Shown: piece after piece, positions 16,413 to 63,976 of the stretch
Numbering within the stretch: position 1 is the first letter of the stretch
Layout of the letters: each line of letters starts with the position of its first letter
Origin: Candidatus Xenobia bacterium
GTDB lineage: Bacteria > Vulcanimicrobiota > Xenobia > Xenobiales > QWHO01
Assembly (NCBI GenBank): GCA_045863235.1
Contig: BTUM01000027.1
Span: 1 to 64,000, forward strand
Direction of reading: 5' to 3'
Length of the DNA: 64,000 nt
Notes under the pieces: model-generated
The model's input: the letters and a program-made list of their open reading frames with translations, nothing else
Databases searched by the model: none
What the model was told of the DNA's origin: nothing
Translations under genes and position numbers: made by a program

Positions 16413-16568
16413 GGGGGCGGCTTCTTGAGCAACGCGAAAAGTCTTTCCAGAAGTTCTGAGCCTTGTCATCGCCGGGGACCCGTCCTCAGGGAGCCGCTCA
16501 GAACAAGTTCTTTCGGGCACTGCTCGGCCGGGGAGGACCTGCGCCCGGCCGGGCGCGAACGGCCGCTC

Positions 16569-16880
16569 ATGGAGCCAGTGGACTACGATATCGAGCCCTC
16601 CCAGGATTTGCTTCGTTTGATGTGGAGTGACGGGCGGGCCACCCTGCACTCCATGGCCGACCTCCGCCGTCAGTGCCCCTGCGCTTCCTGTCGCGCCGAG
16701 CGCGAGAAGATGAAAAACCCGACGGGGCTGCGCGTCCTGAGCGGGCCCGCCCCGACCGTACAGCAGGCTGTCATCCTGAAGGTTCATCCAGTAGGGCGCT
16801 ACGCCTTGCGCTTTGACTGGAACGATCGGCACTCCACCGGAATCTACAGCTACGAGTTCTTACTCGAGCACAGCCAGTAA
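16569..16880 (+). CDS. DUF971 / GBBH-like N-terminal domain protein
   Basis: WSDG...LRRQCPCASC...VGRYALRFDWNDRHSTGIYSYEFL; this is the real C-terminal part of the 728-aa track ORF. Confidence 0.9.
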   Translation: MEPVDYDIEPSQDLLRLMWSDGRATLHSMADLRRQCPCASCRAEREKMKNPTGLRVLSGPAPTVQQAVILKVHPVGRYALRFDWNDRHSTGIYSYEFLLEHSQ

Positions 16881-25600: not shown

Positions 25601-28600
25601 GTAAGTACGCACGGTGATCTGGTAGGTGCCCCCGGCCGGCGTCTTGAGGCTGAAATGGGAAGGAGTATCGCCTTTGGAGGCCTCGTCGAAGCTCTGGCGG
25701 TCGGCGTAGACCGTCTGGTAGCGGCCCTTGCGATACTCGTAATCGATGCGGGCCGAGCGCAGCTCGATGGGCCTGCCGGCCAGGGCCTTGCCGGCGGTGT
25801 CGCAGACCAGCACGTCCAACTCGATGGGTTTGCCCTGCTCGACGAAGGTACTGGCTGTCTTGAGCCCCACGTAGGCGTCGGAGGGATGCACCAGGACGCT
25901 GGTGGAGGCGTTCCAGGCCTGCCGGTTGACGTCTTGCACACTGGCTTCGGCCTGCACCACCATGGGCCGGGGCGGCTCCACGCTCGCAAAATCCAGCTTG
26001 AGGCGGTGCACGCCACTCGAATCGGTGCGCCCCTCGAAGGTCTGGGTGGCGTCGGCGGTGGGGCGCACGTAGAAGTCCATGTCCCACCAGGGGGTCCAGG
26101 TGCCGAAGGTGTATTCGTCGCGTCCGGGGGGCTGGAAGGAGCCCTGGGAGGCGCTCACGGCCCAGTCGACCTGGGCGTTGGGCAGGCCGCCCCCGGCGTA
26201 GTAGCTGGCCCTGACCGTGGCCAGAGCGCTCTGACCGATGGAGGAGGTCTCGGGCTCGGCGCTGGCGCTGACCTCGAACTCGGGCCGGCGGAACTCCTGC
26301 ACCTCGAAGGTGTGAGCCGTGCTGCCTCCGGGCGCCAGGCCGGTGGAGAGGTCCAACCGCGAGGTGCCCAGGTTCATGGTCCGGGGAAGCTTCAGCTTGA
26401 GGTCGAAGCCGCCCAGCGGGCTGACCGGGGTCTGGCCCTTCTTGACCTCATTGCCGCGCGAGTCATAGAGGGTCCAGTAAACCTGGGCCTCCCCGCCGGG
26501 GCCGACGGCGGCGATGTCGCCCTTCGGGCCGGCCTGCCAGCGCCGCATCCAGCCTTTGACGAGCACCTCCTCGTCGGGTCGATACATCTTGCGGTCGTCG
26601 AACACGAACCAGCTGAGCCGGTCGTTCTCGGCCATTCTCGACCAACCCGAGCGGTCCCAGGCGTAGACGTTGCGAGGCAGGAACGTGGCGTCCTGGCCCG
26701 AGCGGGCCACCAGGATCTCGCAGCTGTGCGATGGCAGCTCCAGCTTCAGGCTGCCATCGGCGGCGGTGCGGCCGCGGGGGCCACCCAGAAGGCTGACCTC
26801 GGCCTCGCTTACGGGCGAGCCGTCGGCCAGCTTGCTCACGTAGGCCACCAGCGAAGTGGCGTCGTTGGCGGCGTCCAGGCCCAGGTCGGTGACCTGCACC
26901 CAGGTGATGACGCGCTGGGGATACTTCTCCTTGGTTACGGGCTCCACCACGACGATGGCCATGCCCTTGCCAGCCTTGAGAGCCGGCTCCAGAGCCACCT
27001 TGACCTCGGTCAGCTCGTCAGGCTGCACTCCGGTATCCTGGGTGATGTCCACCACCTTCTCGCCGGGGGCCTGGAAGGGACGATCGTAGCTCTGGTCAGT
27101 GAGAGCCTTGAGAAAGTCCGGCCACTGCTCGGGCCCCACGGCGTAAACCTTGACCTTCAGTTTCTGATAGTTGATCAGGTAGAGGGGGAAACCCGGCTTG
27201 TCCTTGGCCTGCAGGGTCACCAGTTGGCCCCCGGGAGCCATGATCTGGGGCTGGGCCGAGCCCACCTTGAAAGTGAGCGACTCGCTCTCGCCGAGCGTCT
27301 GGCCGAAAGTGTCCGGCAGGGAGCCGTCCAGGCGCACGGTGTAGGTCGTGCGGCCTTTGGTCTGGCCTCGCACCCAGAGCACCGAGCCGTTGGCCTCCAC
27401 CTTGAGGCCGGGGAGCTTCGGCTCGACCTTCACCATGGTCTCGGGGTCGAACTTCTCCTCGTCGATCGGGTTGTTGAAACGAATGTAGAAGGGCTGGAGC
27501 GGGCGGCAATCATCCCCCCAGCCGCAGCGGGACTCCTCCACCTCGAGCTTGTCGTAGGTGCGGAAGGAGTAGTTCTGAGCGGCCTCAGTGCGCAGCGGCC
27601 CCTCCGCCGAGGGGGTACCAGGGCCGACGCTGACCGTGTAGCCGGTGGCCGGCTTGAGGGGTGCCGTGGCCTTGAAGACCACCCAGCGCCTCTTCTCCTC
27701 CTCGGAGATCCCCAGGTTGGCGGCTTTGACCTCCTCCTCCGTGGCCAGTCGCACCGAGATGTCGTTGGAAACCTTGACCGTGGCGATCACCTTGGAGGGA
27801 ACCACGTCCTGGTTGAAGCGCAGCCAGAAGAGCGGCTCCAGGGGATGGGGTCCATCGTTGGGCGCAGTGCCCGCCAGGGTGGGCGGCGGGGTCTTGAAGG
27901 TCCAGCGCTCGACGGCGGCCAGCTTGTTGCCGGTGGCCGAGGCGGTGCCGGCCGGCACCTCCACGGTGTACTCCGTGGCCATGGGGAAACGGTGCAACTC
28001 GTGACCCTCGCTCACCAGCCCGCGCGGCTCGAACAACAGGGTCTTGCTACCCACCCAGCGCCAGTTGCCGTCGACCTCGGGGGCCAGGCGCACGGGTATG
28101 CCTTTGGCCAGGGTGTCGGCGTGGGAGGTAACCGCCACCATGGGCTGGGAGAAGGTGACCGAGAGCTGGGGAACCTGCTCCACAGCGCCTTCGGGCGCGT
28201 GGCGCAGCACCTTGAGGGGCCCCGACTCGACCTCCGGCGCCTTCTCCGGGGGCACGGGCGGAGGGAAGGGCTGCTTCTCCACCTTGCCGGCCCGCGGGGC
28301 GGGCAGGGAGCTCTCGCGCAGAGCAAACTCCTGTTTCAGGCCAGGGATCTTCTTTTGAGCCGGCAAGCGGGCGAGCAGCTTCTTGACCTCGGCCTCGCTC
28401 AGGGGTTTTGATTCGGTAGGAGGAGCGGGCGTGCCCCCTCCTCCGGGGGTACCCTCGGACAGGCTGAAAACCAGGCCTTTGGCGGGAGATGCCGTGCTCT
28501 CCGGGGTCTCGGCCGAGCGGGGCCCGCGCGAGCGGGGTCCGGGCGTGCCAGGGCCGGGGGAGCAGCCCCAGACCACCAGTGCGGCCAGGATGCAGAACGA

Positions 28601-28621
28601 GATCAGTCGTGCCCAGCGCAT
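22622..28621 (-). CDS. Bacterial alpha-2-macroglobulin lipoprotein with Ig-like repeats
   Basis: Lipobox VWGC; DRKMYRP, EFRRPEF and LPDNLTRYR MG-domain motifs; thioester motif YGCAEQ; C-terminal AEEMYNPETFGRS. Confidence 0.95.
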   Translation of the reverse strand: MRWARLISFCILAALVVWGCSPGPGTPGPRSRGPRSAETPESTASPAKGLVFSLSEGTPGGGGTPAPPTESKPLSEAEVKKLLARLPAQKKIPGLKQEFALRESSLPAPRAGKVEKQPFPPPVPPEKAPEVESGPLKVLRHAPEGAVEQVPQLSVTFSQPMVAVTSHADTLAKGIPVRLAPEVDGNWRWVGSKTLLFEPRGLVSEGHELHRFPMATEYTVEVPAGTASATGNKLAAVERWTFKTPPPTLAGTAPNDGPHPLEPLFWLRFNQDVVPSKVIATVKVSNDISVRLATEEEVKAANLGISEEEKRRWVVFKATAPLKPATGYTVSVGPGTPSAEGPLRTEAAQNYSFRTYDKLEVEESRCGWGDDCRPLQPFYIRFNNPIDEEKFDPETMVKVEPKLPGLKVEANGSVLWVRGQTKGRTTYTVRLDGSLPDTFGQTLGESESLTFKVGSAQPQIMAPGGQLVTLQAKDKPGFPLYLINYQKLKVKVYAVGPEQWPDFLKALTDQSYDRPFQAPGEKVVDITQDTGVQPDELTEVKVALEPALKAGKGMAIVVVEPVTKEKYPQRVITWVQVTDLGLDAANDATSLVAYVSKLADGSPVSEAEVSLLGGPRGRTAADGSLKLELPSHSCEILVARSGQDATFLPRNVYAWDRSGWSRMAENDRLSWFVFDDRKMYRPDEEVLVKGWMRRWQAGPKGDIAAVGPGGEAQVYWTLYDSRGNEVKKGQTPVSPLGGFDLKLKLPRTMNLGTSRLDLSTGLAPGGSTAHTFEVQEFRRPEFEVSASAEPETSSIGQSALATVRASYYAGGGLPNAQVDWAVSASQGSFQPPGRDEYTFGTWTPWWDMDFYVRPTADATQTFEGRTDSSGVHRLKLDFASVEPPRPMVVQAEASVQDVNRQAWNASTSVLVHPSDAYVGLKTASTFVEQGKPIELDVLVCDTAGKALAGRPIELRSARIDYEYRKGRYQTVYADRQSFDEASKGDTPSHFSLKTPAGGTYQITVRTYDEKDRPNESQLTVWVPGGKQVPERGVAQEKVVLIPDRKDYQPGETAQILVQAPFYPAEGVLTLRRSGLLETRRFSLTGPSTVLKVTLESAHIPNLYAQVDLVGRNKREDDASGKSERPAYATGMLNLSVPPRERTLKVEVLPAQKGLEPGAETHVDVRVTDAKGQNVPDSEVALVMVDEAVLALTGYQIANPLDLFYAQRDSGVSDWHSRQYVLLVDLASLSEQAEQRTANGYAEGAVMDAAAPMPSAAAAPAPEEEMGKAPVARRAKLEAGGGGASQQPPVKMRTNFSALALFAPRVRTKADGTARVSVKLPDNLTRYRIVAVAVAGANQFGKGESSVVARLPLMVRPSPPRFLNFGDRAELPVVVQNQTDQPLEVQVVVRAQNAVLAEGQGRTFQVRANDRAEVRFPVSTDSAGTASFQVGAFSGKNSDASEFSFPVWTPATTEAFATYGQLDEGATAQPVQAPGEVWKQFGGLELTTTSTALAELTDAMIYLVTYSYGCAEQVSSRVLGIVALQDVLAAFRSEEMPDPEAVKKSVQLDLERLRGMQRPDGGFGFWRADEEDWPYLSVHVAHTLVRAKLKGHAIPGDMLERSLAYVRDVENHIHHWYGLDCRRTIIAYALWVRFLNGDKDVSRAKKLVAEAGVDKLSLEALGFILPILSKEPEAAAIRRHLDNRVTETAEAANFVQDYGESGPHLLLYSDRRVDAILLEALILDSPKSDLIPKLVRGLLGHRTKGRWLNTQENVFVLLAMDRYFNTYEKVTPDFVARVWLGKQYAGEQRFRGRSPDRKGLEVPMSWLAGKGKQDLVLSKEGPGRLYYRIGMRYAPKDLKLEPADHGFTVQRRYEAVDDKGDVAQDAEGVWTVKAGARVRVRLTMVAPNRRYHVALVDPLPAGLEPLNPALKVTGTVPQDPKQRDAIGPYWYWMGTWYEHQNMRDERVEAFTSMLWEGVYDYTYVARATTPGSYVVPPSKAEEMYNPETFGRSGSDRLVVR

Positions 28622-40162: not shown

Positions 40163-40885
40163 ATGTTCAAAAACCAGATTCAGGGACTGCAATCGGCCGG
40201 TGGGGTCACTCTGGAAGAGCGCCGGCGGATGATCCGGGTGCGCTGCTACTGCCACGTCGAGGTGCAGCAGGGCGAGGAGAAGCTCAAGGGCGTGGTGACC
40301 GACCTGGGCGTGGACGGCCTGCGGCTCAAGTGCCCCAGCAAGCTGGCCGAAGGCTCCCAGGTGAGCATTCATTACAACGGCGCGGCCGATGCAGGCGGAG
40401 TGCGCTGCCAGGTGATCTGGAGCCAGCCTCACGCTCGCTACGTCGAGAGCGTCAGCGGGCTTCGCTATGACGACTCGAGCGACAATCTGCGCGCCTCCTG
40501 GGTCAGGCTGGTGCTGCAAGAGCTGGGCTTTGACGAGAGCCGGGTCTACCAGAAACGCAAGTTCATCCGGGCCAACGCCTCCATCCCGGCCCGCCTGGAA
40601 GCGCCCGACAAGAGCCAGCTCAACTGTCGCGTGGTCAACCTGGGCGTGGGGGGCGCCCTGGTGGAGCTGAACGAGGAGTTCCCCCGCGATACCCGGCTGC
40701 AACTGGACATGAGCCTGTGGCGCATCCTGCCCACCCTGAGCCTGCCGGGGCTGGTGGTGGATTCGCGCCGCGACGCCGAGACCGGCATGGTGCTCTCGGG
40801 TCTGCGCTTTGGCGAGCTCAACCCCCAGCAGGTCGAGTTGCTGGGCAAGTACGTGGTCTACCTGCTCAACCAGACGGCCAGTTGA
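40163..40885 (+). CDS. Tandem PilZ-domain protein
   Basis: Two RxxxR ... [DN]xGxxG modules: RRMIR/DLGVDG and RKFIR/NLGVGG. Confidence 0.82.
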   Translation: MFKNQIQGLQSAGGVTLEERRRMIRVRCYCHVEVQQGEEKLKGVVTDLGVDGLRLKCPSKLAEGSQVSIHYNGAADAGGVRCQVIWSQPHARYVESVSGLRYDDSSDNLRASWVRLVLQELGFDESRVYQKRKFIRANASIPARLEAPDKSQLNCRVVNLGVGGALVELNEEFPRDTRLQLDMSLWRILPTLSLPGLVVDSRRDAETGMVLSGLRFGELNPQQVELLGKYVVYLLNQTAS

Positions 40886-41901
40886 AGAGCAGCCTGACCC
40901 TGGAGGCGGCCGGCCGCGAGGTCACCGTCACCAATCCCGACAAGGTCTACTTTCCGAAAGCGGGCAAGACCAAGCTCGATCTGGTGCGCTACTTCCTGAG
41001 CGTGGGCGAGGGGGCTCTGCGCGGGGTGCGCAACCGTCCCATGGTGCTCAAGCGCTTCGTGGACGGGGCCGAGGGCGAGCCGTTTTACCAGAAGCGCGCT
41101 CCCAGCCGTCCCGAATGGATCCGAACCTGCACGATCTCCTTCCCGAGCGGCCGCTCGGCCGACGAGGTGGTGCTCGACGAAGTGGCCGGCCTGGCCTGGG
41201 TGGCCAACCTGGGGTGCCTCGACCTCAACCCCTGGCCCGTACGCACCGAGGATGTGGACCGGCCCGATGAACTGCGCATCGACCTGGATCCCACGCCCGG
41301 AGTGGAGTTCGCCCAGGTGCGCGAGGTGGCCCTGGTGGCTCGCGAGGTGCTGCGCGAGCACGATCTGGAAGGCTTCCCCAAGACCAGTGGCTCGCGCGGC
41401 ATGCACGTCCTGGTGCGCATCGCGCCCCGCTGGGAGTTCTCCCAGGTTCGCCAGGCGGCCCTGGCGCTGGCCCGCGAAATCGAGCGGCGAGTGCCGGCCC
41501 TGGCTACCTCCAAATGGTGGAAGGAAGAGCGCCACGGCGTCTTTGTGGACTACAACCAGAACGCCCGCGACCGCACCGTGGCCTCGGCCTACTCGGTGCG
41601 CCCCACGAGCGACGCGCGCGTCTCCTGCCCGGTCACCTGGGCAGAGGTGCCCACGGTCGACCCGGCCGCCTTCACGATGGAGACTGTACCCCGACGTTAC
41701 GCCGAGATTGGCGATCCCCACCAGGCGATCGACGAGCGAGCGGGCAGCCTGGAAAGCGTGCTCGAGCTGGCTAAAGGACAGGAGGATGCCCCCTGGCCGC
41801 CCCACTTTCGCAAGCAGAAAGCCGAGCCGCCCCGAGTCCAGCCCAGCCGCAGGCGCGCAAAGGCCCAAGAGGATTCTTCGAAATTCGACCGCGAAGGGTG
41901 A
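40882..41901 (+). CDS. Stand-alone LigD-type primase-polymerase (Prim-PolC/PolD-like)
   Basis: TNPDKVYFP, FYQKR, ELRIDLDP, KTSGSRGMH, VDYNQN and AYSVRP; no ligase or phosphoesterase domain. Confidence 0.92.
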   Translation: MKSSLTLEAAGREVTVTNPDKVYFPKAGKTKLDLVRYFLSVGEGALRGVRNRPMVLKRFVDGAEGEPFYQKRAPSRPEWIRTCTISFPSGRSADEVVLDEVAGLAWVANLGCLDLNPWPVRTEDVDRPDELRIDLDPTPGVEFAQVREVALVAREVLREHDLEGFPKTSGSRGMHVLVRIAPRWEFSQVRQAALALAREIERRVPALATSKWWKEERHGVFVDYNQNARDRTVASAYSVRPTSDARVSCPVTWAEVPTVDPAAFTMETVPRRYAEIGDPHQAIDERAGSLESVLELAKGQEDAPWPPHFRKQKAEPPRVQPSRRRAKAQEDSSKFDREG

Positions 41902-45974: not shown

Positions 45975-46991
45975 CTAGATGGCCATTCCGCCGAAGTTGG
46001 GCTGCTGGATGCCACCCAGACCCGGGACGTTCTGCCCGAGGCCGAGGCCCTGAGCCAGGGGGTTCTGCTGGCCGAACTGGCCGAGCTGCTGGGCACCGCC
46101 GCCGCCACCCAGGGCAGCCTGCACCAGAGCGTGAGTCTCCGGCTTGATCTGCTGGGCAGACTGCGGGTTCTGGATAGCCTGGGCGTAGGACTGGGCGAGC
46201 TGGGCTTTGAGCGGGTTGCCGCCACCCTGCTGGAGCGGGTTGGCTCCGAACGGCTGCTGGCCGCCGAAGGGCTGCTGTCCACCGGGCTGGCCCGCACCGA
46301 GTCCGGCCTGGAAACCGGCCATAAGCGGGTTGCCACCACCAGCGGCACCGGGAGCGCCCACACCGGGGATTCCTCCCTGCTGGCCGAACTGCTGCTGTCC
46401 GAAGGGCTGCTGCCCACCGAGACCGCCACTCTGCATGAGGACCTGAGCCGCCATGCCCTGAAGCTGGGAGTTGATGTCGCCCTGGCCCTGGCCGGGCTGC
46501 TGGGCCTGCTGCGGTCCGCCAGCCTGCTGAGGCCCGCCGCCGCCGCCAGCCGGGGGAGCGCCGCCGCCACCGCCCTGCTCGCCGCCGCCGCCGCCGCCTT
46601 TGTCGCCGCCGCCGCCAGCGCCTTCACCGGGCTTGTTGCCGCCCATCTCGGCCAGCTTCTTCTTGAGATCCTCGATCTCTTTGTTGAGATCCTCGATCTC
46701 TTTGCCCTTACCAGGCTTTTCGCCCTCTTTGCCCTCCCCGGGCTTCTTGCCTTCGCCTGGCTTCTCGCCATCACCCTTGATGTCGACTTTGTCCTTAGGA
46801 TCCTCTGGCTTTTTGGCGTCGTCCGCTTTCTTGGCTTCGCCAGGCTTTTTGGCTTCAGCAGCCTTTTTCGCATCGGCTGCGCCGGCAGCCTTGTTCTGGG
46901 TCGCACCTTTGTTCGCCTGAGGCTGTTGCCGCTGAGGCTGCGTCCGCTGAGAACCACCACTACCGCTAGTCTTACTCACTCCACCAGCCAT
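45975..46991 (-). CDS. Gly/Gln-rich, Cys- and Trp-free low-complexity protein (harpin-like composition)
   Basis: AAGGAG RBS, extended -10 upstream and terminator downstream; KPGE, KEIEDL and GGQQPF repeats. Confidence 0.85.
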   Translation of the reverse strand: MAGGVSKTSGSGGSQRTQPQRQQPQANKGATQNKAAGAADAKKAAEAKKPGEAKKADDAKKPEDPKDKVDIKGDGEKPGEGKKPGEGKEGEKPGKGKEIEDLNKEIEDLKKKLAEMGGNKPGEGAGGGGDKGGGGGGEQGGGGGAPPAGGGGGPQQAGGPQQAQQPGQGQGDINSQLQGMAAQVLMQSGGLGGQQPFGQQQFGQQGGIPGVGAPGAAGGGNPLMAGFQAGLGAGQPGGQQPFGGQQPFGANPLQQGGGNPLKAQLAQSYAQAIQNPQSAQQIKPETHALVQAALGGGGGAQQLGQFGQQNPLAQGLGLGQNVPGLGGIQQPNFGGMAI

Positions 46992-53790: not shown

Positions 53791-54279
53791 GTGAGCGAGC
53801 AGGCGGGCGACCAGACACTTCAAGATCCGTCCATGAGCAAGCTGAAGGCACAACTGCCGCAAGAAACTGCTCAGGCGCCTGAGCCCGAGCGGGTGAATGA
53901 GCGCCTGATTCAGCTGGAGGATGCTGCTCGCAAGACAGCCGAGGGTGAGTGGTCGGCTGAAGAGCTTGGCGAGTTCCTGGACGGCATCATTCGCATTCTC
54001 AACGAGCGCGAGCAGCAGATCCGCGAGATCGAGATTCCCCCTGAGGCCGTGGAGGACTTTCGTGAGGAGCTCGAGGTCGGCTTCTCCGGTATCCAGCTCT
54101 ACACCGAGGGCGTCCAGCGCATGCTGCTGTTCGTGGAAGACCCCAACCCGGCGCACCTGGAGGAAGGGCTCGAGCTGGCGCGCCAGGGCAATGACCACAT
54201 CAACGAGGCCATGCGCATCAACCGCGAGAATCGCCGCAAGCTCGAAGAAATGTACATCGACGCCTCCACCATGATGTAA
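53791..54279 (+). CDS. Acidic helical bundle hypothetical protein
   Basis: GGAGGA RBS before GTG; paralog of the 52244 product and of the 41934 repeats. Confidence 0.85.
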   Translation: MSEQAGDQTLQDPSMSKLKAQLPQETAQAPEPERVNERLIQLEDAARKTAEGEWSAEELGEFLDGIIRILNEREQQIREIEIPPEAVEDFREELEVGFSGIQLYTEGVQRMLLFVEDPNPAHLEEGLELARQGNDHINEAMRINRENRRKLEEMYIDASTMM

Positions 54280-54300: not shown

Positions 54301-54335
54301 GAAAAAAGCCCGGGCTTCGAGGCCCGGGCTTTTTC
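54301..54335. terminator. Bidirectional terminator
   Basis: GAAAAAAGCCCGGGC-TTCGAG-GCCCGGGCTTTTTC. Confidence 0.9.
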
Positions 54336-54347
54336 GTGGTCCGAGAT

Positions 54348-55769
54348 TCAGCTTCGGAAATACTGGTGCCACATCTCGTTGACGCGTTGCATGGTCATCG
54401 CCTGGTTGACGGTCGACTCCTGGAAGGTCTTCATCCAGTAGTCCATGGTTTCTTTCATGATCTTCCAGCGCTCGGCCTCATGCTTTTGCCGCTCGGCCCA
54501 GATCTGCATCCAGATGTCGCGAGCCCCTTCCTGGTCCTGAAGGATCTGCTGCATTCGGCGAGCCTGGTCAGCCGCGGACATGGTCGGGCCGCCAGGACCA
54601 CCGGGGCCTCCCGGGCCGGACGGGGGAATCCCGCTCCCGCCGGGCGGAACACCGCCACCACCGGGCGGGATGCCGCTCCCACCGGGCGGAACGCCGGTCC
54701 CCCCAGGGGGAATTCCGCTCCCTCCGGGTACGAATGCGCTGCCCCCAGGAGGCACACCGCCGCCGCCTCCAGGGGGAAGGCCCGAGCCGCCTCCAGGAGG
54801 AGTTGCTCCGCCTCCATTACCGGGCGCCTCGGCCACCGGCGAGGAGAGCAGGCCCGGAGCATTGGTGGAGCCGAGCAGCTGCTGCGCGGGTGGGCCTTGC
54901 AGGGCCAGACCGGACTGCTGGCCGACCAGCTGGTTTCCGCCCGGAGCCACGGGACCGCCGCCGTTGCCGGCCAGAGTCACCAGGTTCGTCCCGGCGGGAG
55001 TGCCGCCCAGGCTGTAGACCAGGCCCCTGCCCGTATTGGCGATCTGCTCCATCAGGCCGTACTGACTGAGCTTGTCTCCGTAGGCTTTGAGCTCGGCGTT
55101 GCCAGGATCACTGGCCAGTTGAGCCGCGACTTCTTTGCTGGCTGCCTGACGGAAGATATCGATCGCGGGCGTCTGCTTGCCGGCTGCCCGATCGGCTTCG
55201 AACGCCTGGTTCAAAGCATCTCCGAAGGCAGGATTCTTAGCCAGTTGCGGGGGAACGTTGGTGCTGATGTCGCCTTCCAGCTGGTTCAGTTGCGCAGAGG
55301 CCACATTGATGGCCGCCTGACCAGCGGCCGCGCCACCGGGCAACCCCTGACCCATCAGAGCCTTCCCCTCGTTCGCGAAGGCTGACTTGAAGCCATCCGG
55401 CGCCACCGAGACCAGCTCCACAAGCTGTTTGCCAAGTTGCTCAGGATCAAGAACTTCGGCCTGGCTCCCCGATTCGGCCCGAGGGGTGTTCTCGCGCCTG
55501 ACCAGCTCGCGCGACTGGGACTCTTCGCCCTGGCGCGTCTGCTTGGCGCCGGCCTGGCCGGTGAGGCCCAGGTGGGTCGCGTTCTCCAGGTGCTCAGCGT
55601 GACGCTCCTGGTGGCTGAGGGTCACCTCGTCGTTTCGCTGCTCGACGGAGGTTCCGTCCGTCTTGCGAGTGGTTCCGGTGACCGCAGTCTGGCCCACGTG
55701 CTCGGTGCGCTTGACGAGGGCCTGCTGATTCCCGACCGCCGGATTGATGGGACTTCCACTTGTAGCCAC
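54348..55769 (-). CDS. 473-aa protein with Pro/Gly linker and C-terminal domain homologous to the 81-aa triplet
   Basis: AAGGAG RBS before GTG 55769 (MATSGSPINP); promoter upstream; C-terminal AERWKI...TVNQA...W..Y..S. Confidence 0.88.
   Translation of the reverse strand: MATSGSPINPAVGNQQALVKRTEHVGQTAVTGTTRKTDGTSVEQRNDEVTLSHQERHAEHLENATHLGLTGQAGAKQTRQGEESQSRELVRRENTPRAESGSQAEVLDPEQLGKQLVELVSVAPDGFKSAFANEGKALMGQGLPGGAAAGQAAINVASAQLNQLEGDISTNVPPQLAKNPAFGDALNQAFEADRAAGKQTPAIDIFRQAASKEVAAQLASDPGNAELKAYGDKLSQYGLMEQIANTGRGLVYSLGGTPAGTNLVTLAGNGGGPVAPGGNQLVGQQSGLALQGPPAQQLLGSTNAPGLLSSPVAEAPGNGGGATPPGGGSGLPPGGGGGVPPGGSAFVPGGSGIPPGGTGVPPGGSGIPPGGGGVPPGGSGIPPSGPGGPGGPGGPTMSAADQARRMQQILQDQEGARDIWMQIWAERQKHEAERWKIMKETMDYWMKTFQESTVNQAMTMQRVNEMWHQYFRS
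54586..54815 (-). repeat. Coding tandem repeat GGxG[IV]PP (about 21-nt units) plus GGP repeats
   Basis: PPGGGSGLPPGGGGGVPP...GGSGIPPGGTGVPPGGSGIPPGGGGVPPGGSGIPPSGPGGPGGPGGP. Confidence 0.85.
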
Positions 55770-55799
55770 GAAGCTCGCTCCTTTATCCCAGGTGTGTGG

Positions 55800-55881
55800 A
55801 GTATACCAGCCTGCGCTGAAGGCGTAAACGTCGAGTTTGTTTCCAAACTGTAAACAGATGGCCAATCCGATAAATGTTAAA
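55800..55881 (-). promoter_or_regulatory. Promoter TTTACG-N17-TATACT with upstream GTTTACA/TTTAACA boxes
   Basis: -35 at 55823-55828; extended -10 at 55800-55805; boxes at 55849-55855 and 55875-55881. Confidence 0.65.
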
Positions 55882-55985: not shown

Positions 55986-56231
55986 CTAGCTCTTGATGTA
56001 GTCGCTCCATTTGTTGAACATCTTGTCCTGCGTCTTGGCCTGGTTGACGGTCACGTCCTGCTGAATCTCGAAAATCTTCGTCTGTGTCTCGCGCAGAATC
56101 TTCCAGCGCTCGGCCTGCTGCTTTTGCGTATCGGCCATCATCTGGGTCTGAATGGTCTGGGCCTGCATCTGGTCGCTCAGGGCCATCTGGGCGATCGAGG
56201 CGGCGTTGGCGGCTCCACCGATGAGTAACAT
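55986..56231 (-). CDS. 81-aa Gln/Ala/Met-rich helical protein, copy 3
   Basis: Protein identical to copies 1 and 2; AGGAGG RBS. Confidence 0.92.
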   Translation of the reverse strand: MLLIGGAANAASIAQMALSDQMQAQTIQTQMMADTQKQQAERWKILRETQTKIFEIQQDVTVNQAKTQDKMFNKWSDYIKS

Positions 56232-56349: not shown

Positions 56350-56595
56350 TTAGCTCTTGATATAGTCGCTCCACTTGTTGAACATCTTGTCCTGCGTCTT
56401 GGCCTGGTTGACCGTGACGTCCTGCTGAATTTCGAAGATCTTGGTCTGCGTCTCGCGCAGAATCTTCCAGCGCTCGGCCTGCTGCTTCTGCGTATCGGCC
56501 ATCATCTGGGTCTGAATGGTCTGGGCCTGCATCTGGTCGCTCAGGGCCATCTGGGCGATCGAGGCGGCGTTGGCTGCTCCACCAATGAGTAGCAT
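56350..56595 (-). CDS. 81-aa helical protein, copy 2
   Basis: GGAGG RBS; own promoter-like TTTACT-N17-GATAGA at 56647-56675. Confidence 0.92.
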   Translation of the reverse strand: MLLIGGAANAASIAQMALSDQMQAQTIQTQMMADTQKQQAERWKILRETQTKIFEIQQDVTVNQAKTQDKMFNKWSDYIKS

Positions 56596-56805: not shown

Positions 56806-57051
56806 CTAGCTCTTGATGTAGTCGCTCCACTTGTTGAACATCTTGTCCTGCGTCTTGGCCTGGTTGACCGTGACGTCCTGCTGAATTTCAAAGATCTTCG
56901 TCTGGGTCTCACGCAGAATCTTCCAGCGCTCGGCCTGTTGCTTCTGCGTGTCGGCCATCATCTGGGTCTGGATGGTCTGGGCCTGCATCTGGTCACTCAG
57001 GGCCATCTGGGCAATTGAAGCTGCGTTGGCTGCACCACCGATTAAGAGCAT
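56806..57051 (-). CDS. 81-aa helical protein, copy 1
   Basis: Identical protein with the most divergent synonymous codons; hairpin at 56729-56750 downstream. Confidence 0.92.
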   Translation of the reverse strand: MLLIGGAANAASIAQMALSDQMQAQTIQTQMMADTQKQQAERWKILRETQTKIFEIQQDVTVNQAKTQDKMFNKWSDYIKS

Positions 57052-57161: not shown

Positions 57162-57476
57162 TCAATCCACGTGCGTCTGGTTCACAACCAGTTTGACGCC
57201 TGCCGCCTTGAGGTCTTCCACCAGCTTCTCGTTGTTCTCGTAGAGGGTCAGCACGGTGGCGTCGCGGGCGGCCGTGACCACCACCTCCATCATTTCCAGA
57301 AAGAGCTTGGGATCCACCGAGGGGGACTCGGAAAGGCGCTTGAGCAGGTCGGTGTTCTGGGGACGCTTCATCTCCCGGGCCCAGCTCTCGAGATACATCC
57401 GATTGAAGATGCTGAGCATCGCGGGGGCGCTGAGGCCGAGCTGACCTTCCAGATCGCTGGCGGTGGCTTCTTCCAT
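57162..57476 (-). CDS. Hypothetical 104-aa acidic helical protein
   Basis: AGGAGG RBS inside the end of the aminotransferase gene; last gene of the flhB-flhA run. Confidence 0.8.
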   Translation of the reverse strand: MEEATASDLEGQLGLSAPAMLSIFNRMYLESWAREMKRPQNTDLLKRLSESPSVDPKLFLEMMEVVVTAARDATVLTLYENNEKLVEDLKAAGVKLVVNQTHVD

Positions 57477-57482
57477 GTCGAG

Positions 57483-58829
57483 CTACCTCCTGACCACCGA
57501 GTTGATGCGGTTGGCGATATCCATCAAGTAACCGTTGATTCCCTGAGGCCCAATCTTTTGCATGTGATCGAAGAGAGAACGCCAGGTCTCCAGCAGATGC
57601 TTGAGGTCGGCGTCGCTCGAGACATAGGGAGGCGACACTCGGATCACCTCAGGGCAGTGCACCATCGAGGTGAGCAGGATGCTGTGCTCCTCGCGAATCA
57701 TCTCCTGCACGGTCAGGCCGACAGCTGGAGCCGTCGTGCACAGGCAGCGCATCAATCCCACGCCCCGATGGCCTACGGCAAGGTCCGGGAAGTCGCGGCA
57801 CAGCTCGTCGAAGCCCTTCTCGAGGAGATTGCCCAGATGGGCTGAGCGCTCGACCAGTTTCTCGCTCTCGAGCGCATCCAGGGTGGCCACACCGGCCGCG
57901 CAGGCCAGCGGATTGCCGGCAAAGGTCGAGTTATTGAAGAGGGGTCGCGCCTCCTCGGCGGCCCGAACTCGGGCCGAGTAGAGCACGGCTGAAACCGGGC
58001 AGACCGCGCCCGACAAAACTTTGCCGACACAGATCAGATCGGGCACCACTCCTGAGGCGTCCAGCGCGAACCAGCGGCCGGTGCGACCAAGTCCCGACTG
58101 GATCTCATCGGCGATCAGCAGGGCTCCGTGAGCATCGCAGAGAGCCCTGACCCGCCGCAGGTACTCGGGAGTGGCTACCGAGCAACCGGAAGCCCACTGG
58201 ACCGGCTCGAGAATCACGGCGGCCACATCCGGTCCCATGGCCTTCTCGAGCGCGGCAACGTCCAGGAAGGGGACGATGGTCGCGTCGCTCAAGTTGGGCG
58301 TGCCGCTCTTCCAGTAATCGATGCCTCCCACGCTGAGGGTGCCGATCGACATTCCATGGTAGCCCATGTGCATGCCGATGAAACGGGGGCGTCCGGTCGC
58401 CAGGCGCGCCAGCTTCAACGCCGCCTCCACCGCCTCCGTTCCCGAGTTGAGGAAGGCGCAGAAGGGCAGATTCCCCGGCACTCGCGCCGAAAGTCGAGCG
58501 GCCAGAACAGCTTGACCGGGCACGATGCCGGCTCGGGTCGAGAGCGCGGCGCGCTCGAGCTGTCGCTTCACTGCCTCGATCACTTTGGGATGCGCATGGC
58601 CCAGCCCGAAGGTACCCCCCGCACCCATGCAGTCATAGTAACGACGACCCCGAGGATCGATGAGATAGGCGCCTTCCCCCCGCCACTCGACCAGGGCGCT
58701 GCCCAGAGCCCGCAAAGAGCGAGCCAGGGTGGGATTCATGTGCCTCTCCTGCAGGTCGAGCTGGTCGGCCAGCAACTGGGCGTACTCGGCTTCGTCGAGA
58801 ACCTCGGGATAGTCCAACCAATCGCGCAT
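57483..58829 (-). CDS. Class III PLP aminotransferase (putrescine/ornithine aminotransferase-like)
   Basis: NSGTEAVEAALK, GYHG, ILEPVQ, DEIQSGLGRTG, GK and STFAGNP motifs. Confidence 0.9.
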   Translation of the reverse strand: MRDWLDYPEVLDEAEYAQLLADQLDLQERHMNPTLARSLRALGSALVEWRGEGAYLIDPRGRRYYDCMGAGGTFGLGHAHPKVIEAVKRQLERAALSTRAGIVPGQAVLAARLSARVPGNLPFCAFLNSGTEAVEAALKLARLATGRPRFIGMHMGYHGMSIGTLSVGGIDYWKSGTPNLSDATIVPFLDVAALEKAMGPDVAAVILEPVQWASGCSVATPEYLRRVRALCDAHGALLIADEIQSGLGRTGRWFALDASGVVPDLICVGKVLSGAVCPVSAVLYSARVRAAEEARPLFNNSTFAGNPLACAAGVATLDALESEKLVERSAHLGNLLEKGFDELCRDFPDLAVGHRGVGLMRCLCTTAPAVGLTVQEMIREEHSILLTSMVHCPEVIRVSPPYVSSDADLKHLLETWRSLFDHMQKIGPQGINGYLMDIANRINSVVRR

Positions 58830-58841
58830 GTGGGCCCTTCC

Positions 58842-60701
58842 TCAACGCACGGCGGCGATCAGCTCGCTCACCATGGTGTAGCGGTTTTTTCCGAACGGAG
58901 GGATCAGGTACACCCCCCGAATCTTCTTGCGAATCCGTGCCAGGAGGTCGTTTGTCAGCTCCATCGCCAGTTTCTGGCCATCCTCCGGTGTCTCAACCTT
59001 CTCGTACTGCGCCAGAATCTCCTCGGGTATGACGATTCCGGGGATCTTGCCGGCGGCGAAGAACTCGGCATTTCGTCGACTGGTGATGGGCAAAATGCCA
59101 ACCAGGATGGGAATCGGGAGATGGGCGGTGGCCTCCAGCATCATGTCCACCTCCAACTCACGGTAGACCGGCTGGGTATAGATGAACTGCGCTCCCGCTT
59201 CCACCTTCTGCTCCAGCCATTTGAGCTGAGCCTTGTGCCCGCGGCCGGGGTTAAAGCCCCCTCCGATCATGAAGTCGCACCGGCAGCAGGGGGCCTGATT
59301 GAAAAGGCGACCCGCATTCATGCTCTTGATCAGGCGCATGAGGTTGACCGAGCTCTTGAGGTCGTTGACCCTGGAGGAGTACTTATCGTGGTCGCCCACA
59401 TTGGGATGGTCGCCTGTCACGGCCAGCACCGCCCGGATGCCGGCGTGCCAGGCGCCCAGCAGATAGGATTGCACCGCGACTAGATTGCGATTGCAGGCCG
59501 AAAGATGGATCATGGTCGGGATCTGCGTCTCGCGCTGCATCTGGGCCGCCGACACCAGCGGGTCCACGGTCACCTTGGCCCCAGCATTATCGGGCACGTC
59601 AAAAAGGTGGGCACCCTCCTGAGCAAGCTTCTTGCCAGCCTCGAGAAAGCTGGTCAGGGAATGCTCGCGGTTGGGGCGCATCTCGACCGAGATGACGAAA
59701 TCGACGCTTTTAAAGACCTGCTCGAAGGGATTGGGCTCCTGCACCGCCTCGGGAGCGGGGGCAACCACCTCCTGCACCCGTAGCGCACTGGGATGGCGCT
59801 CGGCGGGGGGCTTGAGACCCTCGACAGCCTGCTTGAGCATGGCGATGTGCGCCGGCTCGGTGCCACAGCAACCGCCTACGATACAGGCACCCGCTTCGAC
59901 CAGGCGCTTGCCGAACCGCTGGAACTGTTCGGGATTGACATGGTAGACCACGCGGCCCCGGTCGATCTCGGGCGAGCCGGCATTGGGCATGGCCACCAGC
60001 GGCAGGTGGGTGAACTGAGCCAGGCGCTGGATGGTTTCCAGAACATCGTAAGGTGCTCGGCAGTTGGCCCCCATCAGATGGGCGCCCAGTCGGGTGGCCA
60101 GCAACGCGAACTCACTGATGTCAGCTCCGGTGCCGGTTTTCCCGTTCTGGACTCCGCCCACCTCGAACAGCACTGGAACCCCGAAAGAAACGGCCTCGCG
60201 CAGGGCCGCCTGGGCCTCATAGAGCGACTGAAAGGTTTCCAGAGCCAGGAAGTCGACGCCGGCCTGCACCAGGGCCTCCATCTGCTCGTTGAAGATGGCC
60301 GCCACTTCGCTCTCTTCATACTCGTGGCGAATGTGGTGAATCTCGAGTGGGCCCACCGAGCCTCCCACGAACCGCTCGGGACCGGCGCACTCGCGGGCCA
60401 TCCTGACCCCCTCGATGTTGATCTCGCGGACCTCGTTGGCCAGCCCATGGCGGGCCAGCTTGATGGAGTTGGCTCCGTAGGTATTGGTGAGGAGAATGTC
60501 GGCACCCACCTCCACGTAAGAGCGGTGCACGGCCATCACCAACTGGCGATAGAGCGGGTCGAGGTTGAGGCCGTCCAGGCATTCGTGCCCGGCCCCGCGC
60601 AGACCCTGAAGCCGGGTGCCCATGGCCCCATCGCAGACCAGGACCCTGGTCTTGATGGCTTCCAGCAGCGTTTTCTTCGCAGTGATGGGCGCTTCCCACA
60701 T
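58842..60701 (-). CDS. yitJ: Bifunctional homocysteine S-methyltransferase / methylenetetrahydrofolate reductase
   Basis: DGAMGT, GANC, PNAG and GGCCG Zn motifs; C-terminal MTHFR with CNRN, TGD and KVEAGAQFIYTQPVY. Confidence 0.92.
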   Translation of the reverse strand: MWEAPITAKKTLLEAIKTRVLVCDGAMGTRLQGLRGAGHECLDGLNLDPLYRQLVMAVHRSYVEVGADILLTNTYGANSIKLARHGLANEVREINIEGVRMARECAGPERFVGGSVGPLEIHHIRHEYEESEVAAIFNEQMEALVQAGVDFLALETFQSLYEAQAALREAVSFGVPVLFEVGGVQNGKTGTGADISEFALLATRLGAHLMGANCRAPYDVLETIQRLAQFTHLPLVAMPNAGSPEIDRGRVVYHVNPEQFQRFGKRLVEAGACIVGGCCGTEPAHIAMLKQAVEGLKPPAERHPSALRVQEVVAPAPEAVQEPNPFEQVFKSVDFVISVEMRPNREHSLTSFLEAGKKLAQEGAHLFDVPDNAGAKVTVDPLVSAAQMQRETQIPTMIHLSACNRNLVAVQSYLLGAWHAGIRAVLAVTGDHPNVGDHDKYSSRVNDLKSSVNLMRLIKSMNAGRLFNQAPCCRCDFMIGGGFNPGRGHKAQLKWLEQKVEAGAQFIYTQPVYRELEVDMMLEATAHLPIPILVGILPITSRRNAEFFAAGKIPGIVIPEEILAQYEKVETPEDGQKLAMELTNDLLARIRKKIRGVYLIPPFGKNRYTMVSELIAAVR

Positions 60702-60719: not shown

Positions 60720-62858
60720 TTAGACCTGGACCATTCCCACCGAGTTGACGTTGACTTTTGGGGCGATTTCGTTCCAAGAGAGCAGCACCAGGTTGGGGAA
60801 GGAGCGCTCGGTCAATTTGCGCAGGGCCGAGCGAACCGGGGGTGAGCACAACAAGATCGGCTGGAGGCCGCGCTCCTGCAACTGCTGCACCTGGCCCGAG
60901 ATGGCCTGCAGGATCTCCTGGCCGGTATTGGGGTCCAGGGTCAGGAACGAGCCCGCCTCAGTGCGCTGGATGGCCGACTGGATGACCTGCTCGATGGACG
61001 GGTCGAGCGTGATCACGTTGATCGTGCCCTCATTGTTCATGTACTCTTTGCAGATCACCCGGCTGAGAGCCACCCGCACGAACTCGGTGAGCATCTCAGG
61101 GTCTTTGGTGATGTGCACGTTGTCGGCCAGTGTCTCCAGAATGGTGACCAGGTCGCGGATGGAGACCCGTTCTTTGACCAGATTCTGGAGCACCTTCTGA
61201 ACTTCGCCCAGGGTCAGGGCGTCGGGGATGACCTCCTTGACCACGGCCGGGTGGGTCTTCTTGACGGTGTCGATGAGGGCCTGAACCTCCTGGCGGCCGA
61301 GCAGCTCGTTGGCGTGGCCGCGCACGACCTCGGTCAATTGGGTCGCCACCACGCTCACCGGGTCGAAGATCATACAACCGAGCCGCTCGGCGTCGCCACG
61401 CTGCTCGGGCGAGATCCAGACGCCGGGCATGCCGTAGGTCGGGTCGACCGTCTTGGTGCCGCGCAGATTCTTCAGCTTCTCTTCCGGGCCGATGGCCAGG
61501 AACTGATTGATCTGAACCTCGCCCTGAGCCACCTCGATCTCCTTGATCTTGATGACGTAGGCATTGGGCTTGAGCTGCAAGTTGTCGCGGAAGCGCACAC
61601 CGGGAACCACGATACCGAGCTCGAGGGCGATGTGACGACGAATCGAGGTGACGCGCTCGAGTAGCTTGGCGCCCTGGTTGGGGTCCACCAGAGAGAGGAG
61701 GCCGCGTCCCACTTCCAGCGAGATGGGGTCGACCTGCATCAACTGCACGACGCTCTCTGGCTTCTTGACCTCGGCCTTCTTCTTCTGGTCTTGCTCCTGG
61801 GCCTGAACGTCGGCAACCTGGACCGACTTCTTGGTCAGAATCGTGCCCACGAAGAACATCAGGCCGCCCAGGCAGAAGAAGGGAAGTGGCGGGAAGGCAA
61901 ACAGCCCTACCACTCCCAGACCCCCGAGCAGGATCATAAAGCCGGCAGCCATTTTGAGCGCGCCCGGCTGGGCGGTGATCTGGCGGGTCACGTCGGAGCC
62001 CAGGTTGGAGTCGGAAGCGGCGCGCGAGACCACCATACCCATCGAGGTCGACATCAAGAAGGCGGGAAGCGTGGTGATGAGGCCGTTTCCGATGGAAAGA
62101 ATGGCGTAGATGTTGATGGCGTGGCCAGCCGACATCTTGTGGTAGAGCACGCCCACCAGGATGCCGCCGATCACGTTCACGACCATGATGACGATGGCCG
62201 CCATCGCGTCGCCTTTGACGAACTTGCCGGCACCGTCCATAGCGCCGTAGAAGTCGGCTTCCTTTTCGATCTGGCGCCGTTTGTTCTTGGCGCCTTCGGC
62301 ATCGATCAGGCCAGCGTGCAGGTCGGCGTCGATGGCCATCTGTTTACCGGGCATCGCGTCCAGGGTGAAGCGGGCGGCCACCTGGGCGATACGCTCGGCA
62401 CCGTTGGTGATCACCATCAGCTGAATGATGATCAAGATGATGAACATGATGAAGCCGACGACCAGGTTGCCGCCTACCACGACCTCACCGAAGGCGGGGA
62501 TCAGGTGGCCGGCGCCGATGGGCTTCTTGCTGACCGGGTCGAGCACGTTGCCGTGCAGCAGGATCATACGCGTGGCCGACACGTCCAGGGCCAGCCGGAA
62601 GAGGGTGGCCACCAGCAGCAGGGTCGGGAAGACGGCGAATTCGAGGGGCTCGGCGATGTAGATCGAGATCAGGATGGTGATCAAGGAGCCGGCGATGTTC
62701 ACCACCAGCAGAAGGTCCAAGAAGTCGGGCGGCATGGGCACGATCAGCATCATCACGATGCCGATCACGACCACGGCGATGCCGATGTCTGAGAACTTTA
62801 AAAGCTTGAGTAATGGATGGTCGGGTAAGCCGTCAGCTGGGTTCGGTTGTCCGGCCAT
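60720..62858 (-). CDS. flhA: Type III export gate protein FlhA/SctV
   Basis: FPTLLLVATLFRL, GAERIAQVAARFTLDAMPGKQMAIDADL, FYGAMDGAGKFVKGDA; large cytoplasmic domain. Confidence 0.96.
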   Translation of the reverse strand: MAGQPNPADGLPDHPLLKLLKFSDIGIAVVVIGIVMMLIVPMPPDFLDLLLVVNIAGSLITILISIYIAEPLEFAVFPTLLLVATLFRLALDVSATRMILLHGNVLDPVSKKPIGAGHLIPAFGEVVVGGNLVVGFIMFIILIIIQLMVITNGAERIAQVAARFTLDAMPGKQMAIDADLHAGLIDAEGAKNKRRQIEKEADFYGAMDGAGKFVKGDAMAAIVIMVVNVIGGILVGVLYHKMSAGHAINIYAILSIGNGLITTLPAFLMSTSMGMVVSRAASDSNLGSDVTRQITAQPGALKMAAGFMILLGGLGVVGLFAFPPLPFFCLGGLMFFVGTILTKKSVQVADVQAQEQDQKKKAEVKKPESVVQLMQVDPISLEVGRGLLSLVDPNQGAKLLERVTSIRRHIALELGIVVPGVRFRDNLQLKPNAYVIKIKEIEVAQGEVQINQFLAIGPEEKLKNLRGTKTVDPTYGMPGVWISPEQRGDAERLGCMIFDPVSVVATQLTEVVRGHANELLGRQEVQALIDTVKKTHPAVVKEVIPDALTLGEVQKVLQNLVKERVSIRDLVTILETLADNVHITKDPEMLTEFVRVALSRVICKEYMNNEGTINVITLDPSIEQVIQSAIQRTEAGSFLTLDPNTGQEILQAISGQVQQLQERGLQPILLCSPPVRSALRKLTERSFPNLVLLSWNEIAPKVNVNSVGMVQV

Positions 62859-62875: not shown

Positions 62876-63976
62876 TCATCGCCGCGCCCCGGTCTTGCCG
62901 CGCCGCCGCTTCATCTCGCGTTTTCGTTTCAACTTGATCACGTAGGCCAGCACCTCGGCCACCGCCTTGTAGAGCTCGGTGGGGATGGCCTGGCCCACCT
63001 CGCAGGCTCCGAACAGCGTTCGCGCCAGCTCGACGTTCTCGATGATGGGTACGTCGTGGTCCTCAGCCTTGACCTTGATCTGCTGGGCCACCAGGTTCTC
63101 CCCCTTGGCCACGACCATGGGAACCGGATCGACCCCGGTTTCGTACTTCAGGGCAATGGCCAGATGGGTAGGGTTGGTCACCACCGCCGAGGAGTTGGGC
63201 ACCTCCTCCATCATGCGGCCCTGGGCGCCCTGGCGCATGAGCTGGCGCATCTTGGCCTTGACCTGAGGGTTCCCCTCGGTATCCTTATACTCGTCTTTCA
63301 ACTCTTGCATGCTCATGCGCATCTGCTTCATGAACTGCTTGTACTGGAACAAGTAGTCGAGAATGGAGAGAGCCGTCATGCCGATCAGCACCTGGAAGGT
63401 GAGGCGCACCAGAATCGTCTTCACCAGGGCGATGGTCTGGTTGAGGTCCATCTGCGGGGAGGCAGCGAACTTGGGCAACTCGCCCTTGACGCACTTGTAG
63501 CAGATCCAGCCGATAACCACCACTTTCAGGATCTGCTTGACCAGTTCCATGACCGACTTCATGGAGAAGATCCGCTTGAACCCCTCGATGGGGTTGATCT
63601 TGCTCAAGGACGGCTTGAGGGGCTCGACCGTAAACAGAAACTTGACCTGGGCTACGTTGGCCAGAATGGCCATGATGAACACCGAGGCCAGCAGTGGGGC
63701 CAGCACGATGAGCACGGTGCCCATCATCAACATCGATTCGCCCATCAGGTTGCGCTCGTTCATCTGGAAAGTGGGGATCAGCATCCAGATGTACTTGGTG
63801 TAGTCGATGATGCGGGCGAGCATCATCTTGCCGCAGGTCAGCAGCACCCCGTAGCAGGCCAGCAGAAGCAGCGTGGAGATGATCTCCTGGCTCTTCAGTA
63901 CCTGGCCTTTCTTGCGCGCTTCCTGGAGCTTATGCTCGGTCGGTTCCTCGGTCTTGTCACTGTCGCTGCCGCCCAC
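62876..63976 (-). CDS. flhB: Type III export switch protein FlhB/SctU
   Basis: DKTEEPT..KL.EARKKGQ, EYKDTEGNP, NPTH autocleavage site, IPTELYKAVAEVL. Confidence 0.96.
   Translation of the reverse strand: MGGSDSDKTEEPTEHKLQEARKKGQVLKSQEIISTLLLLACYGVLLTCGKMMLARIIDYTKYIWMLIPTFQMNERNLMGESMLMMGTVLIVLAPLLASVFIMAILANVAQVKFLFTVEPLKPSLSKINPIEGFKRIFSMKSVMELVKQILKVVVIGWICYKCVKGELPKFAASPQMDLNQTIALVKTILVRLTFQVLIGMTALSILDYLFQYKQFMKQMRMSMQELKDEYKDTEGNPQVKAKMRQLMRQGAQGRMMEEVPNSSAVVTNPTHLAIALKYETGVDPVPMVVAKGENLVAQQIKVKAEDHDVPIIENVELARTLFGACEVGQAIPTELYKAVAEVLAYVIKLKRKREMKRRRGKTGARR

Follow-up and report, generated by a model that had tools for sequence, protein, structure and literature searches.

The locus analysed here raises the question of what a 473-residue protein does when its C-terminus is a relative of the 81-residue protein encoded three times beside it, close to a flagellar-type export gate. 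It lies in a stretch of 64,000 nucleotides (the window) of contig BTUM01000027.1 from Candidatus Xenobia bacterium, a member of the Eremiobacterota/Vulcanimicrobiota whose genome is 97.6% complete. The answer we lean towards is that the long protein would be a low-copy subunit that docks on a filament of the 81-mer and is exported by the same motor-less machine. The genes concerned are:

54348..55769, minus strand: long paralog 'A' of 473 aa, starting at GTG
55986..56231, minus strand: 81-aa small subunit, copy 3
56350..56595, minus strand: 81-aa small subunit, copy 2
56806..57051, minus strand: 81-aa small subunit, copy 1, with a sigma70-like promoter (57116-57088) in front
60720..62858, minus strand: FlhA-type export gate (Pfam FHIPEP; NCBIfam FlhA)
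62876..63976, minus strand: FlhB

The three 81-mer genes, all just upstream of the long gene, encode identical proteins from DNA that is 90-95% alike. A first-pass annotation had matched the last 74 residues of the long protein to the 81-mer without gaps, with about 30 identities and a shared last residue, and this alignment was reproduced with 30 identities. Its local score of 143 was reached by none of 15,000 shuffles (5,000 each; maxima of 65 with the 81-mer shuffled, 64 with the tail shuffled and 78 with the tail shuffled in 10-aa windows), so the match is significant against composition-matched sequences (143 vs a maximum of 78). Chance, composition and a register artefact were ruled out as sources of the paralogy by these shuffles together with the column permutation and register shifts described below.

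The long gene is framed by candidate expression signals and encodes a protein of distinct parts:

55828-55800, minus strand: sigma70-like promoter (9/12 matches, TG; consensus match only)
55783-55778, minus strand: ribosome site AAGGAG
55778..55828, minus strand: promoter and ribosome-site region
54306..54325, minus strand: terminator-like hairpin 3' of the gene (consensus match only)
55545..55730, minus strand: conserved N-terminal motif, residues ~14-75 (N.Q.VG.Q ... D.V.LS ... TG)
54996..55457, minus strand: all-alpha middle domain, residues 105-258, 7 helices (AF2), genus-specific
54585..54815, minus strand: Pro/Gly tether, residues 319-395, with seven GGxG[ILV]PP units
54351..54578, minus strand: C-terminal helix, residues 398-473, a homolog of the 81-mer

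The ribosome site lies 8 nt 5' of the GTG start, and two sigma70-like promoters were found where 0.5 would be expected, both as consensus matches only. RNA-library contigs from four studies cover the long gene, one of them running from 54368 to 55773; these data consist of contigs only, carry neither strand nor level, have a depth that cannot be used to rank genes and may include library DNA.

Much of the architecture described at first pass held up. The GGxG[IV]PP repeat linker comprises seven GGxG[ILV]PP units at residues 327-383, consists of 75% Pro+Gly and repeats at the DNA level with a 21-nt period (repeat search), and the helical middle domain (residues 105-258) was predicted by AF2 to be all-helical (pLDDT 92.7, pTM 0.83). 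The supposedly Ser/Thr-rich, disordered N-terminus is only mildly enriched in Ser/Thr (15-21%) and more so in D/E/K/R/Q (32-52% in residues 14-104). It also carries a phylum-wide conserved motif that had been overlooked, which we regard as a candidate export or chaperone-binding segment.

Database searches placed the protein in no known family. Pfam returned no match at E 1, the needle-tip families (LcrV/IpaD/SipD) included, and the Flg_hook (T3S4) C-terminal domain of FliK/SctP rulers was not found among its profiles; a PDB sequence search gave nothing meaningful. For the middle domain, Foldseek gave zero matches at E 0.001, the ESM Atlas gave no usable match, and a further fold search reached at best VIA (Z 7.8, rmsd 3.3, 76 aligned) among unrelated bundles; the missing fold match is no proof of a new fold. 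A word-index search with the long protein retrieved four relatives, all at genus level, and none of 29 pattern matches on viral contigs was a relative.

Orthologs were nevertheless widespread in the phylum. At least 41 of 52 small-subunit carriers possess one, mostly in single copy (36 among the 150 of 262 rows listed, plus 5 from further searches). It often lies shortly downstream of the small copies, at a distance of 1.3-2.5 kb; in several genomes, the stretch fetched around the long gene contained no small copy. The 51 aligned orthologs span 192-477 aa and have in common the N-terminal motif and the tail. Run against the 88,734 ORFs of the genome, an HMM of 46 orthologs outside the genus picked out the motif of the long protein (E 1.8e-4) and one further protein. 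By this distribution, the long protein is evidently a conserved component and not a one-off fusion. In the tree, long-A tails formed no single supported clade, and the window genus sat on a long branch. In many cases the small and long genes are separated by another long paralog, 'B' (SH-aLRT 97).

What lies between the conserved ends varies. Pro+Gly content ahead of the tail is at least 30% in 37 of the 51 orthologs, and a crude filter found a folded-looking middle in 10 (five from the window genus). Six family-f3 long proteins outside this alignment carry a different folded middle. The three lineage types of middle domain share no homology detectable by hhalign (probability 0.2-1.3%, values matched or beaten by 12, 31 and 2 of 100 shuffles) or by an HMM test. 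Most orthologs lack the middle, which would therefore be an optional part and not what the protein mainly serves for. A scan of 100 long relatives revealed no Pfam domain of an enzyme or adhesin in those of long-A type. The expectation of further fusions with variable cargo in the same genome failed, as there is one long ortholog only; the remaining paralogs measure just 118-190 aa and carry extensions of low complexity, and the idea of several such fusions was rejected. An acidic protein of ~270 aa elsewhere in the genome (G000:C89:26348-27274) has the long protein's N-terminal motif and no tail, which makes it a candidate substrate of the same export machine.

The orthologs vary in length (192-477 aa) between their conserved ends and have a Pro-rich, disordered body, as FliK/SctP rulers do. 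The long protein could accordingly be a length ruler, a nucleator, or a cytoplasmic chaperone or plug that pairs with the 81-mer against early polymerisation, and be absent from the filament; having its own promoter would suit such a role. The genome already contains two FliK-like genes, both away from the long protein, which itself lacks the FliK C-terminal domain, and a ruler would not readily account for a folded domain that is exposed and differs between lineages. We consider a regulator improbable.

The gate and its neighbours are of flagellar type. FlhA scored 814.6 bits against the NCBIfam FlhA model (passing its cut-off of 772.1) and 616.5 against SctV (failing that of 692.25); likewise, the FliI clade 2 and FliF cut-offs were passed and those of SctN and SctJ failed, so that no injectisome-type SctV/SctN/SctJ core was found in the locus. 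Upstream of flhB, past the window, the cluster continues with two fliQ genes, fliP, fliO, two fliN genes, fliM and a short flgE/F/G-like gene, and further on with fliK, SLT, fliJ, fliI, fliH, two fliG genes, fliF, fliE, flgC and flgB; fliR was read by eye, and flgF and flgG are on another contig. The genome thus holds the flagellar export set, FliF (MS-ring), FliG/M/N (C-ring) and rod genes. Flagellin_N, MotB_plug, MotA_N, FlgD, FliD_C and FlgI had zero matches in this 97.6% complete genome, with positive controls; assembly gaps may lie behind such absences, yet none of 18 family-f2 genomes had flagellin. Secretin profiles gave three matches in the genome, none on the window contig.

In a sample from the phylum, 79 of 80 genomes had an FlhA-family match and 27 of 80 a flagellin match. 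Among 44 genomes tested, strong MotB matches occurred in exactly the 13 that bear flagellin, and three others had weak matches only. In a quick FlhA tree (49 rows, without an outgroup from other phyla), the copies adjoining small-subunit genes formed one group (28 rows, SH-aLRT 96), second copies formed a separate group (15 rows, SH-aLRT 100) that lies near flagellin in several genomes, and other families had a third FlhA type. An FlhA clade of its own and the absence of flagellin and motor argue for a second, motor-less type III machine. Judged by gene content, the locus is a predicted motor-less, flagellum-derived type III export machine, second to the true flagellum in the phylum.

Several further genes deserve mention. 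Between flhA and the small genes, 57483-60701 (minus strand) encodes a class III aminotransferase and homocysteine methyltransferase/MTHFR fusion, and an aminotransferase-like gene occupies the equivalent place in genus g5. Two small unannotated genes, at 57162-57476 (minus strand) and 53791-54279 (plus strand), have lookalikes (by eye) downstream of flhA in distant families and may therefore be chaperones or regulators of the system. The cytoplasmic domain of FlhA recurs in five stand-alone or fused copies (G000 C80, C3, C1, C107, C106), and in some relatives FHIPEP matches number at least 12. A 338-aa Gln/Gly-rich low-complexity protein at 45975-46991 (minus strand), which has a D.V.I motif near its start and belongs to no Pfam family, is a possible secreted substrate.

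The small subunit itself was predicted by AF2 to be one straight long helix (pLDDT 82.9, pTM 0.45), with no needle hairpin. The model had no Foldseek match and only generic coiled coils (Z 7.3 or less) in a second fold search. ESM Atlas features pointed to the HrpA pilin (0.91/0.90), Pfam HrpA_pilin matched 6 of 72 small-subunit family members (best E 0.0012) and NCBIfam T3SS_pilin_HrpA matched 11 of 72 (best E 0.0011); these three pointers are weak and not independent of each other. The HrpA matches span part of the profile only, other unrelated helical families matched equally often, and the 81-mer fell below the HrpA pilin cut-off (PF09589, NF053530), with 19.3 bits at best vs 34. Needle families (SctF) were absent among the 25 families shown in the Pfam and NCBIfam comparisons. 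Our reading is that the 81-mer would be Hrp-pilin-like in its working while standing outside the HrpA family proper.

Those homologs of the 81-mer that bear an organism name belong to Eremiobacterota/Vulcanimicrobiota, among them Ca. Xenobium and Ca. Bruticola. A profile search detected the family, mostly as multiple copies, in 52 of 301 genomes of the phylum, and in 0 of 207 genomes of the largest family sampled; in several stretches fetched from search-negative genomes, flhA is followed downstream by a gene of ~81 aa or by long paralogs. Genus g5, for instance, has a much-diverged small subunit, missed by the family profile, and two long paralogs at the same position (L058:9439-11330, L067:8388-10480). 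The window genome carries three more small copies and five divergent short paralogs on contigs C69, C3, C78, C74, C12, C15, C34 and C18 of G000, of which C34 (118 aa) may be a displaced paralog B.

With the HrpA likeness under its cut-off and additional small paralogs scattered over other contigs, the 81-mer could instead be an abundant effector, a toxin or a coiled-coil/amyloid matrix protein, and the long protein a related secreted substrate; the presence of the 81-mer's tail at the tips of RHS-like and VgrG proteins (see below), the usual position of toxins, would agree. Against this reading, the small gene is tightly linked to flhA across families, and divergent lineages also keep an ~81-aa gene and long paralogs downstream of flhA. 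Furthermore, the rod is retained with no other filament gene found, and conservation is extreme, unlike that of effectors. An effector or matrix protein seems quite unlikely.

The behaviour of the tail points to an interface shared with the small subunit. In five genus relatives, 74-76 of its 76 residues are identical, compared with 81-146 of 154 in the middle domain. Both in 19 genome pairs chosen by hand, with one small copy per genome, and in 11 families represented once each, double-centred comparison showed the tail to be nearer to the small subunit of its own genome than to others (0 of 20,000 permutations; p 5e-5 when the window genome is left out). The observed value of 16.6 compares with a maximum of 5.7 in 1,000 column-permuted controls and with -2.3 to 2.1 after register shifts, and tracking was strongest at small-subunit positions 34-48. 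This position-by-position tracking supports co-assembly, and co-evolving packing partners would be its simplest reading. An old, patchy gene conversion between the neighbouring genes is a possible alternative source. A recent, long conversion is unsupported, since the longest identical nucleotide run between tail and small gene is 7-19 nt, 19 nt at most. Tracking requires binding alone and not incorporation, and in this respect it also suits a ruler or chaperone. A complex prediction with four 81-mers and the tail gave scores of 0.17, 0.35 and 0.01 (mark 0.32), which weigh neither for nor against docking.

Across 19 pairs, the tail has a higher mean hydropathy than the small subunit (Kyte-Doolittle -0.45 vs -1.11), which would fit a membrane-active role as well. 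The long protein might then act like a translocator or harpin, with the Trp/Met-rich amphipathic tail of a pilin-derived protein inserting in a target membrane and not in a filament. Harpins have Gly/Pro-rich disordered bodies, as does the long protein; paralog B, in its frequent position between the small and long genes, recalls one half of a translocator pair, and no other translocon was identified. No transmembrane segment as in the YopB/YopD type was found (maximum 19-residue Kyte-Doolittle 0.86), and the gapless register and position-specific cognate tracking point to a shared protein interface. We give membrane insertion only a slight chance.

The docking reading can be spelled out as a sequence of steps. 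The multi-copy 81-mer would be exported and polymerise on the rod as an HrpA-like helical pilus. The long protein would leave through the same machine by way of its unstructured N-terminus, and its tail would dock in the filament lattice as a tip, a cap or a sparse minor subunit, with the N-terminal part hanging outside on the tether. The weakest step concerns the folded middle, which might be a dispensable module, peculiar to each lineage, for contact with prey or surfaces or for their recognition. The first-pass annotation had proposed a minor or tip subunit that co-assembles into the filament and displays a cargo domain. The subunit half of this proposal fits true paralogy, a type III export context without flagellin, a plausible pilin and a tail that is very strongly constrained within the genus and tracks its cognate small subunit. 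The cargo half fares worse, since cargo is not the conserved feature (10 of 51).

Among known systems, the Hrp pilus (HrpA/HrpE) of plant-associated, non-flagellar T3SS likewise has a small, helical subunit next to an apparatus for type III export; the likeness in features and HMMs is weak. HrpA forms a flexible pilus that replaces the needle, according to Abby and Rocha (PMC3459982). Here, by contrast, the subunit lies below the family cut-offs, the apparatus is flagellar-type (FlhA, FliI clade 2, FliF, FliG/M, rod) and not Sct-type, and the window contig lacks a secretin. We know of no long tethered pilin paralog in Hrp systems. The needle-tip proteins SipD/IpaD/LcrV offer a parallel for a larger low-copy protein packing helix against helix on a filament; PrgI-SipD is described as a four-helix bundle (PMC3150277). 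In our case, the putative docking helix is a paralog of the presumed filament subunit itself (40% identical, gapless) behind a Pro/Gly tether, and the Pfam and fold searches gave no match to tip proteins.

Motor-less type III machines that keep a basal body have a precedent in the Buchnera remnant flagellum, and the Myxococcales T3SS, also motor-less, is without flagellar axial genes and SctF (PMC3459982). The present system differs from both in keeping FliE, FlgB/C/F/G and FliG/M, in sharing some genomes with a second flagellar system that is complete, and in its candidate pilin with two long paralogs. Structural modules with an accessory part riding on a filament are familiar from type IV minor pilins and from VgrG/Hcp/PAAR extensions. 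The fusion of the two parts is the same here; fold and export route differ, the extension is N-terminal and mostly disordered with a short conserved motif, and it bears no recognisable catalytic cargo. The system would not count as a flagellum, lacking flagellin and motor; its core of flagellar type sets it apart from the injectisome clade, and against HrpA it stays below the cut-off. No published description of it was found in the literature searched, a scope that mostly excluded subscription papers.

Reconstructions mostly treat the transition from flagellum to injectisome as a single event that has left few living intermediates (PMC3459982). A phylum-wide second flagellar-type machine, with rod and C-ring kept, motor and flagellin gone, and an apparent new pilin with dedicated long paralogs, would allow this transition to be tested in another lineage as well. 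Through the long subunit, one could find out what the filament contacts.

The small-subunit helix also occurs outside the system. When 1.84 billion representatives were searched with a profile, 555 matched at E 0.001, and among the 150 listed, the last 45-60 residues of the small subunit were found grafted on unrelated proteins, namely trypsin-TIR-TPR, VgrG, CHAT, NB-ARC, another CHAT protein, membrane proteins and an RHS-like core (read by eye):

P0190, P0272, P0278, P0275, P0148, P0266, L185:1-981, L186:2555-4237: grafted-tail proteins (trypsin-TIR-TPR, CHAT, NB-ARC, VgrG, RHS-like core)
L078:5971-6465, L080:5929-6474, L084:5884-6483, L115:5986-6504: Acidobacteriota alpha/beta fusions

Nineteen grafted tails had a median of 33 of 46 residues identical to a small subunit, compared with 20.5 for long A tails, and in a tree from a short alignment, in which few forks were resolved, they nest at several points among the small subunits. 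The tails of P0246 and P0278 are closest to the subunit type of the window genome, that of P0220 to the f3 type. This grafting on many unrelated proteins marks the helix as a portable module. Most other fusions lie on short contigs of no stated origin; out of 53 genome loci, six outsiders were examined in context. Four Acidobacteriota have a solitary gene in which a ~95-aa alpha/beta domain (no Pfam match) is fused to the small-subunit tail, and 17 members of this fusion family were aligned. In Blastocatellia, a peptide (L128:5938-6186) consists of a double-glycine leader and a core formed by the small-subunit tail, and its gene sits between cNMP/C39 peptidase ABC transporter and HlyD/PPIase genes. 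Five Acidobacteriota genomes, of no stated completeness, have one grafted-tail copy each and an FlhA only 37-45% identical to that of the window, vs 62-100% in the system's clade; within that scope, these hosts appear to be without this system's FlhA type.

Such tails could be decoys, jammers or sensors directed against an attacker. Predation was suggested for Ca. Eudoremicrobiaceae (PMC9259500), and our extension of this idea to the Vulcanimicrobiota group derives from that suggestion. In a far-reaching scenario that we hold to be doubtful, non-phototrophic Vulcanimicrobiota would have made a contact weapon resembling an injectisome out of a duplicated flagellum, on a path separate from that of the known injectisome, with its own pilin and with the long protein as a tip subunit whose swappable domain sets the target range. 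Target bacteria would have repeatedly captured the assembly helix and put it to use as a peptide that is secreted to jam the filament (double-glycine leader and C39 exporter), as a VgrG/RHS-like tip, or as an NB-ARC, TIR/trypsin or CHAT decoy that oligomerises when the pilin arrives, amounting to immunity to a bacterial predator's needle. The captured tails would then suggest ready-made filament inhibitors and sensors, and they hint that sludge, gut and soil bacteria of this group attack other bacteria. In a Kiritimatiellia protein of 1,627 aa (L129:5611-10494), the tail lies near residues 110-180 and is followed by propeller-like and DUF11 regions.

Elsewhere in the window, we noted a family B DNA polymerase (14187-16832, minus strand), a bacterial alpha-2-macroglobulin (22622-28621, minus strand) and a LigD primase-polymerase (40717-41901, plus strand).
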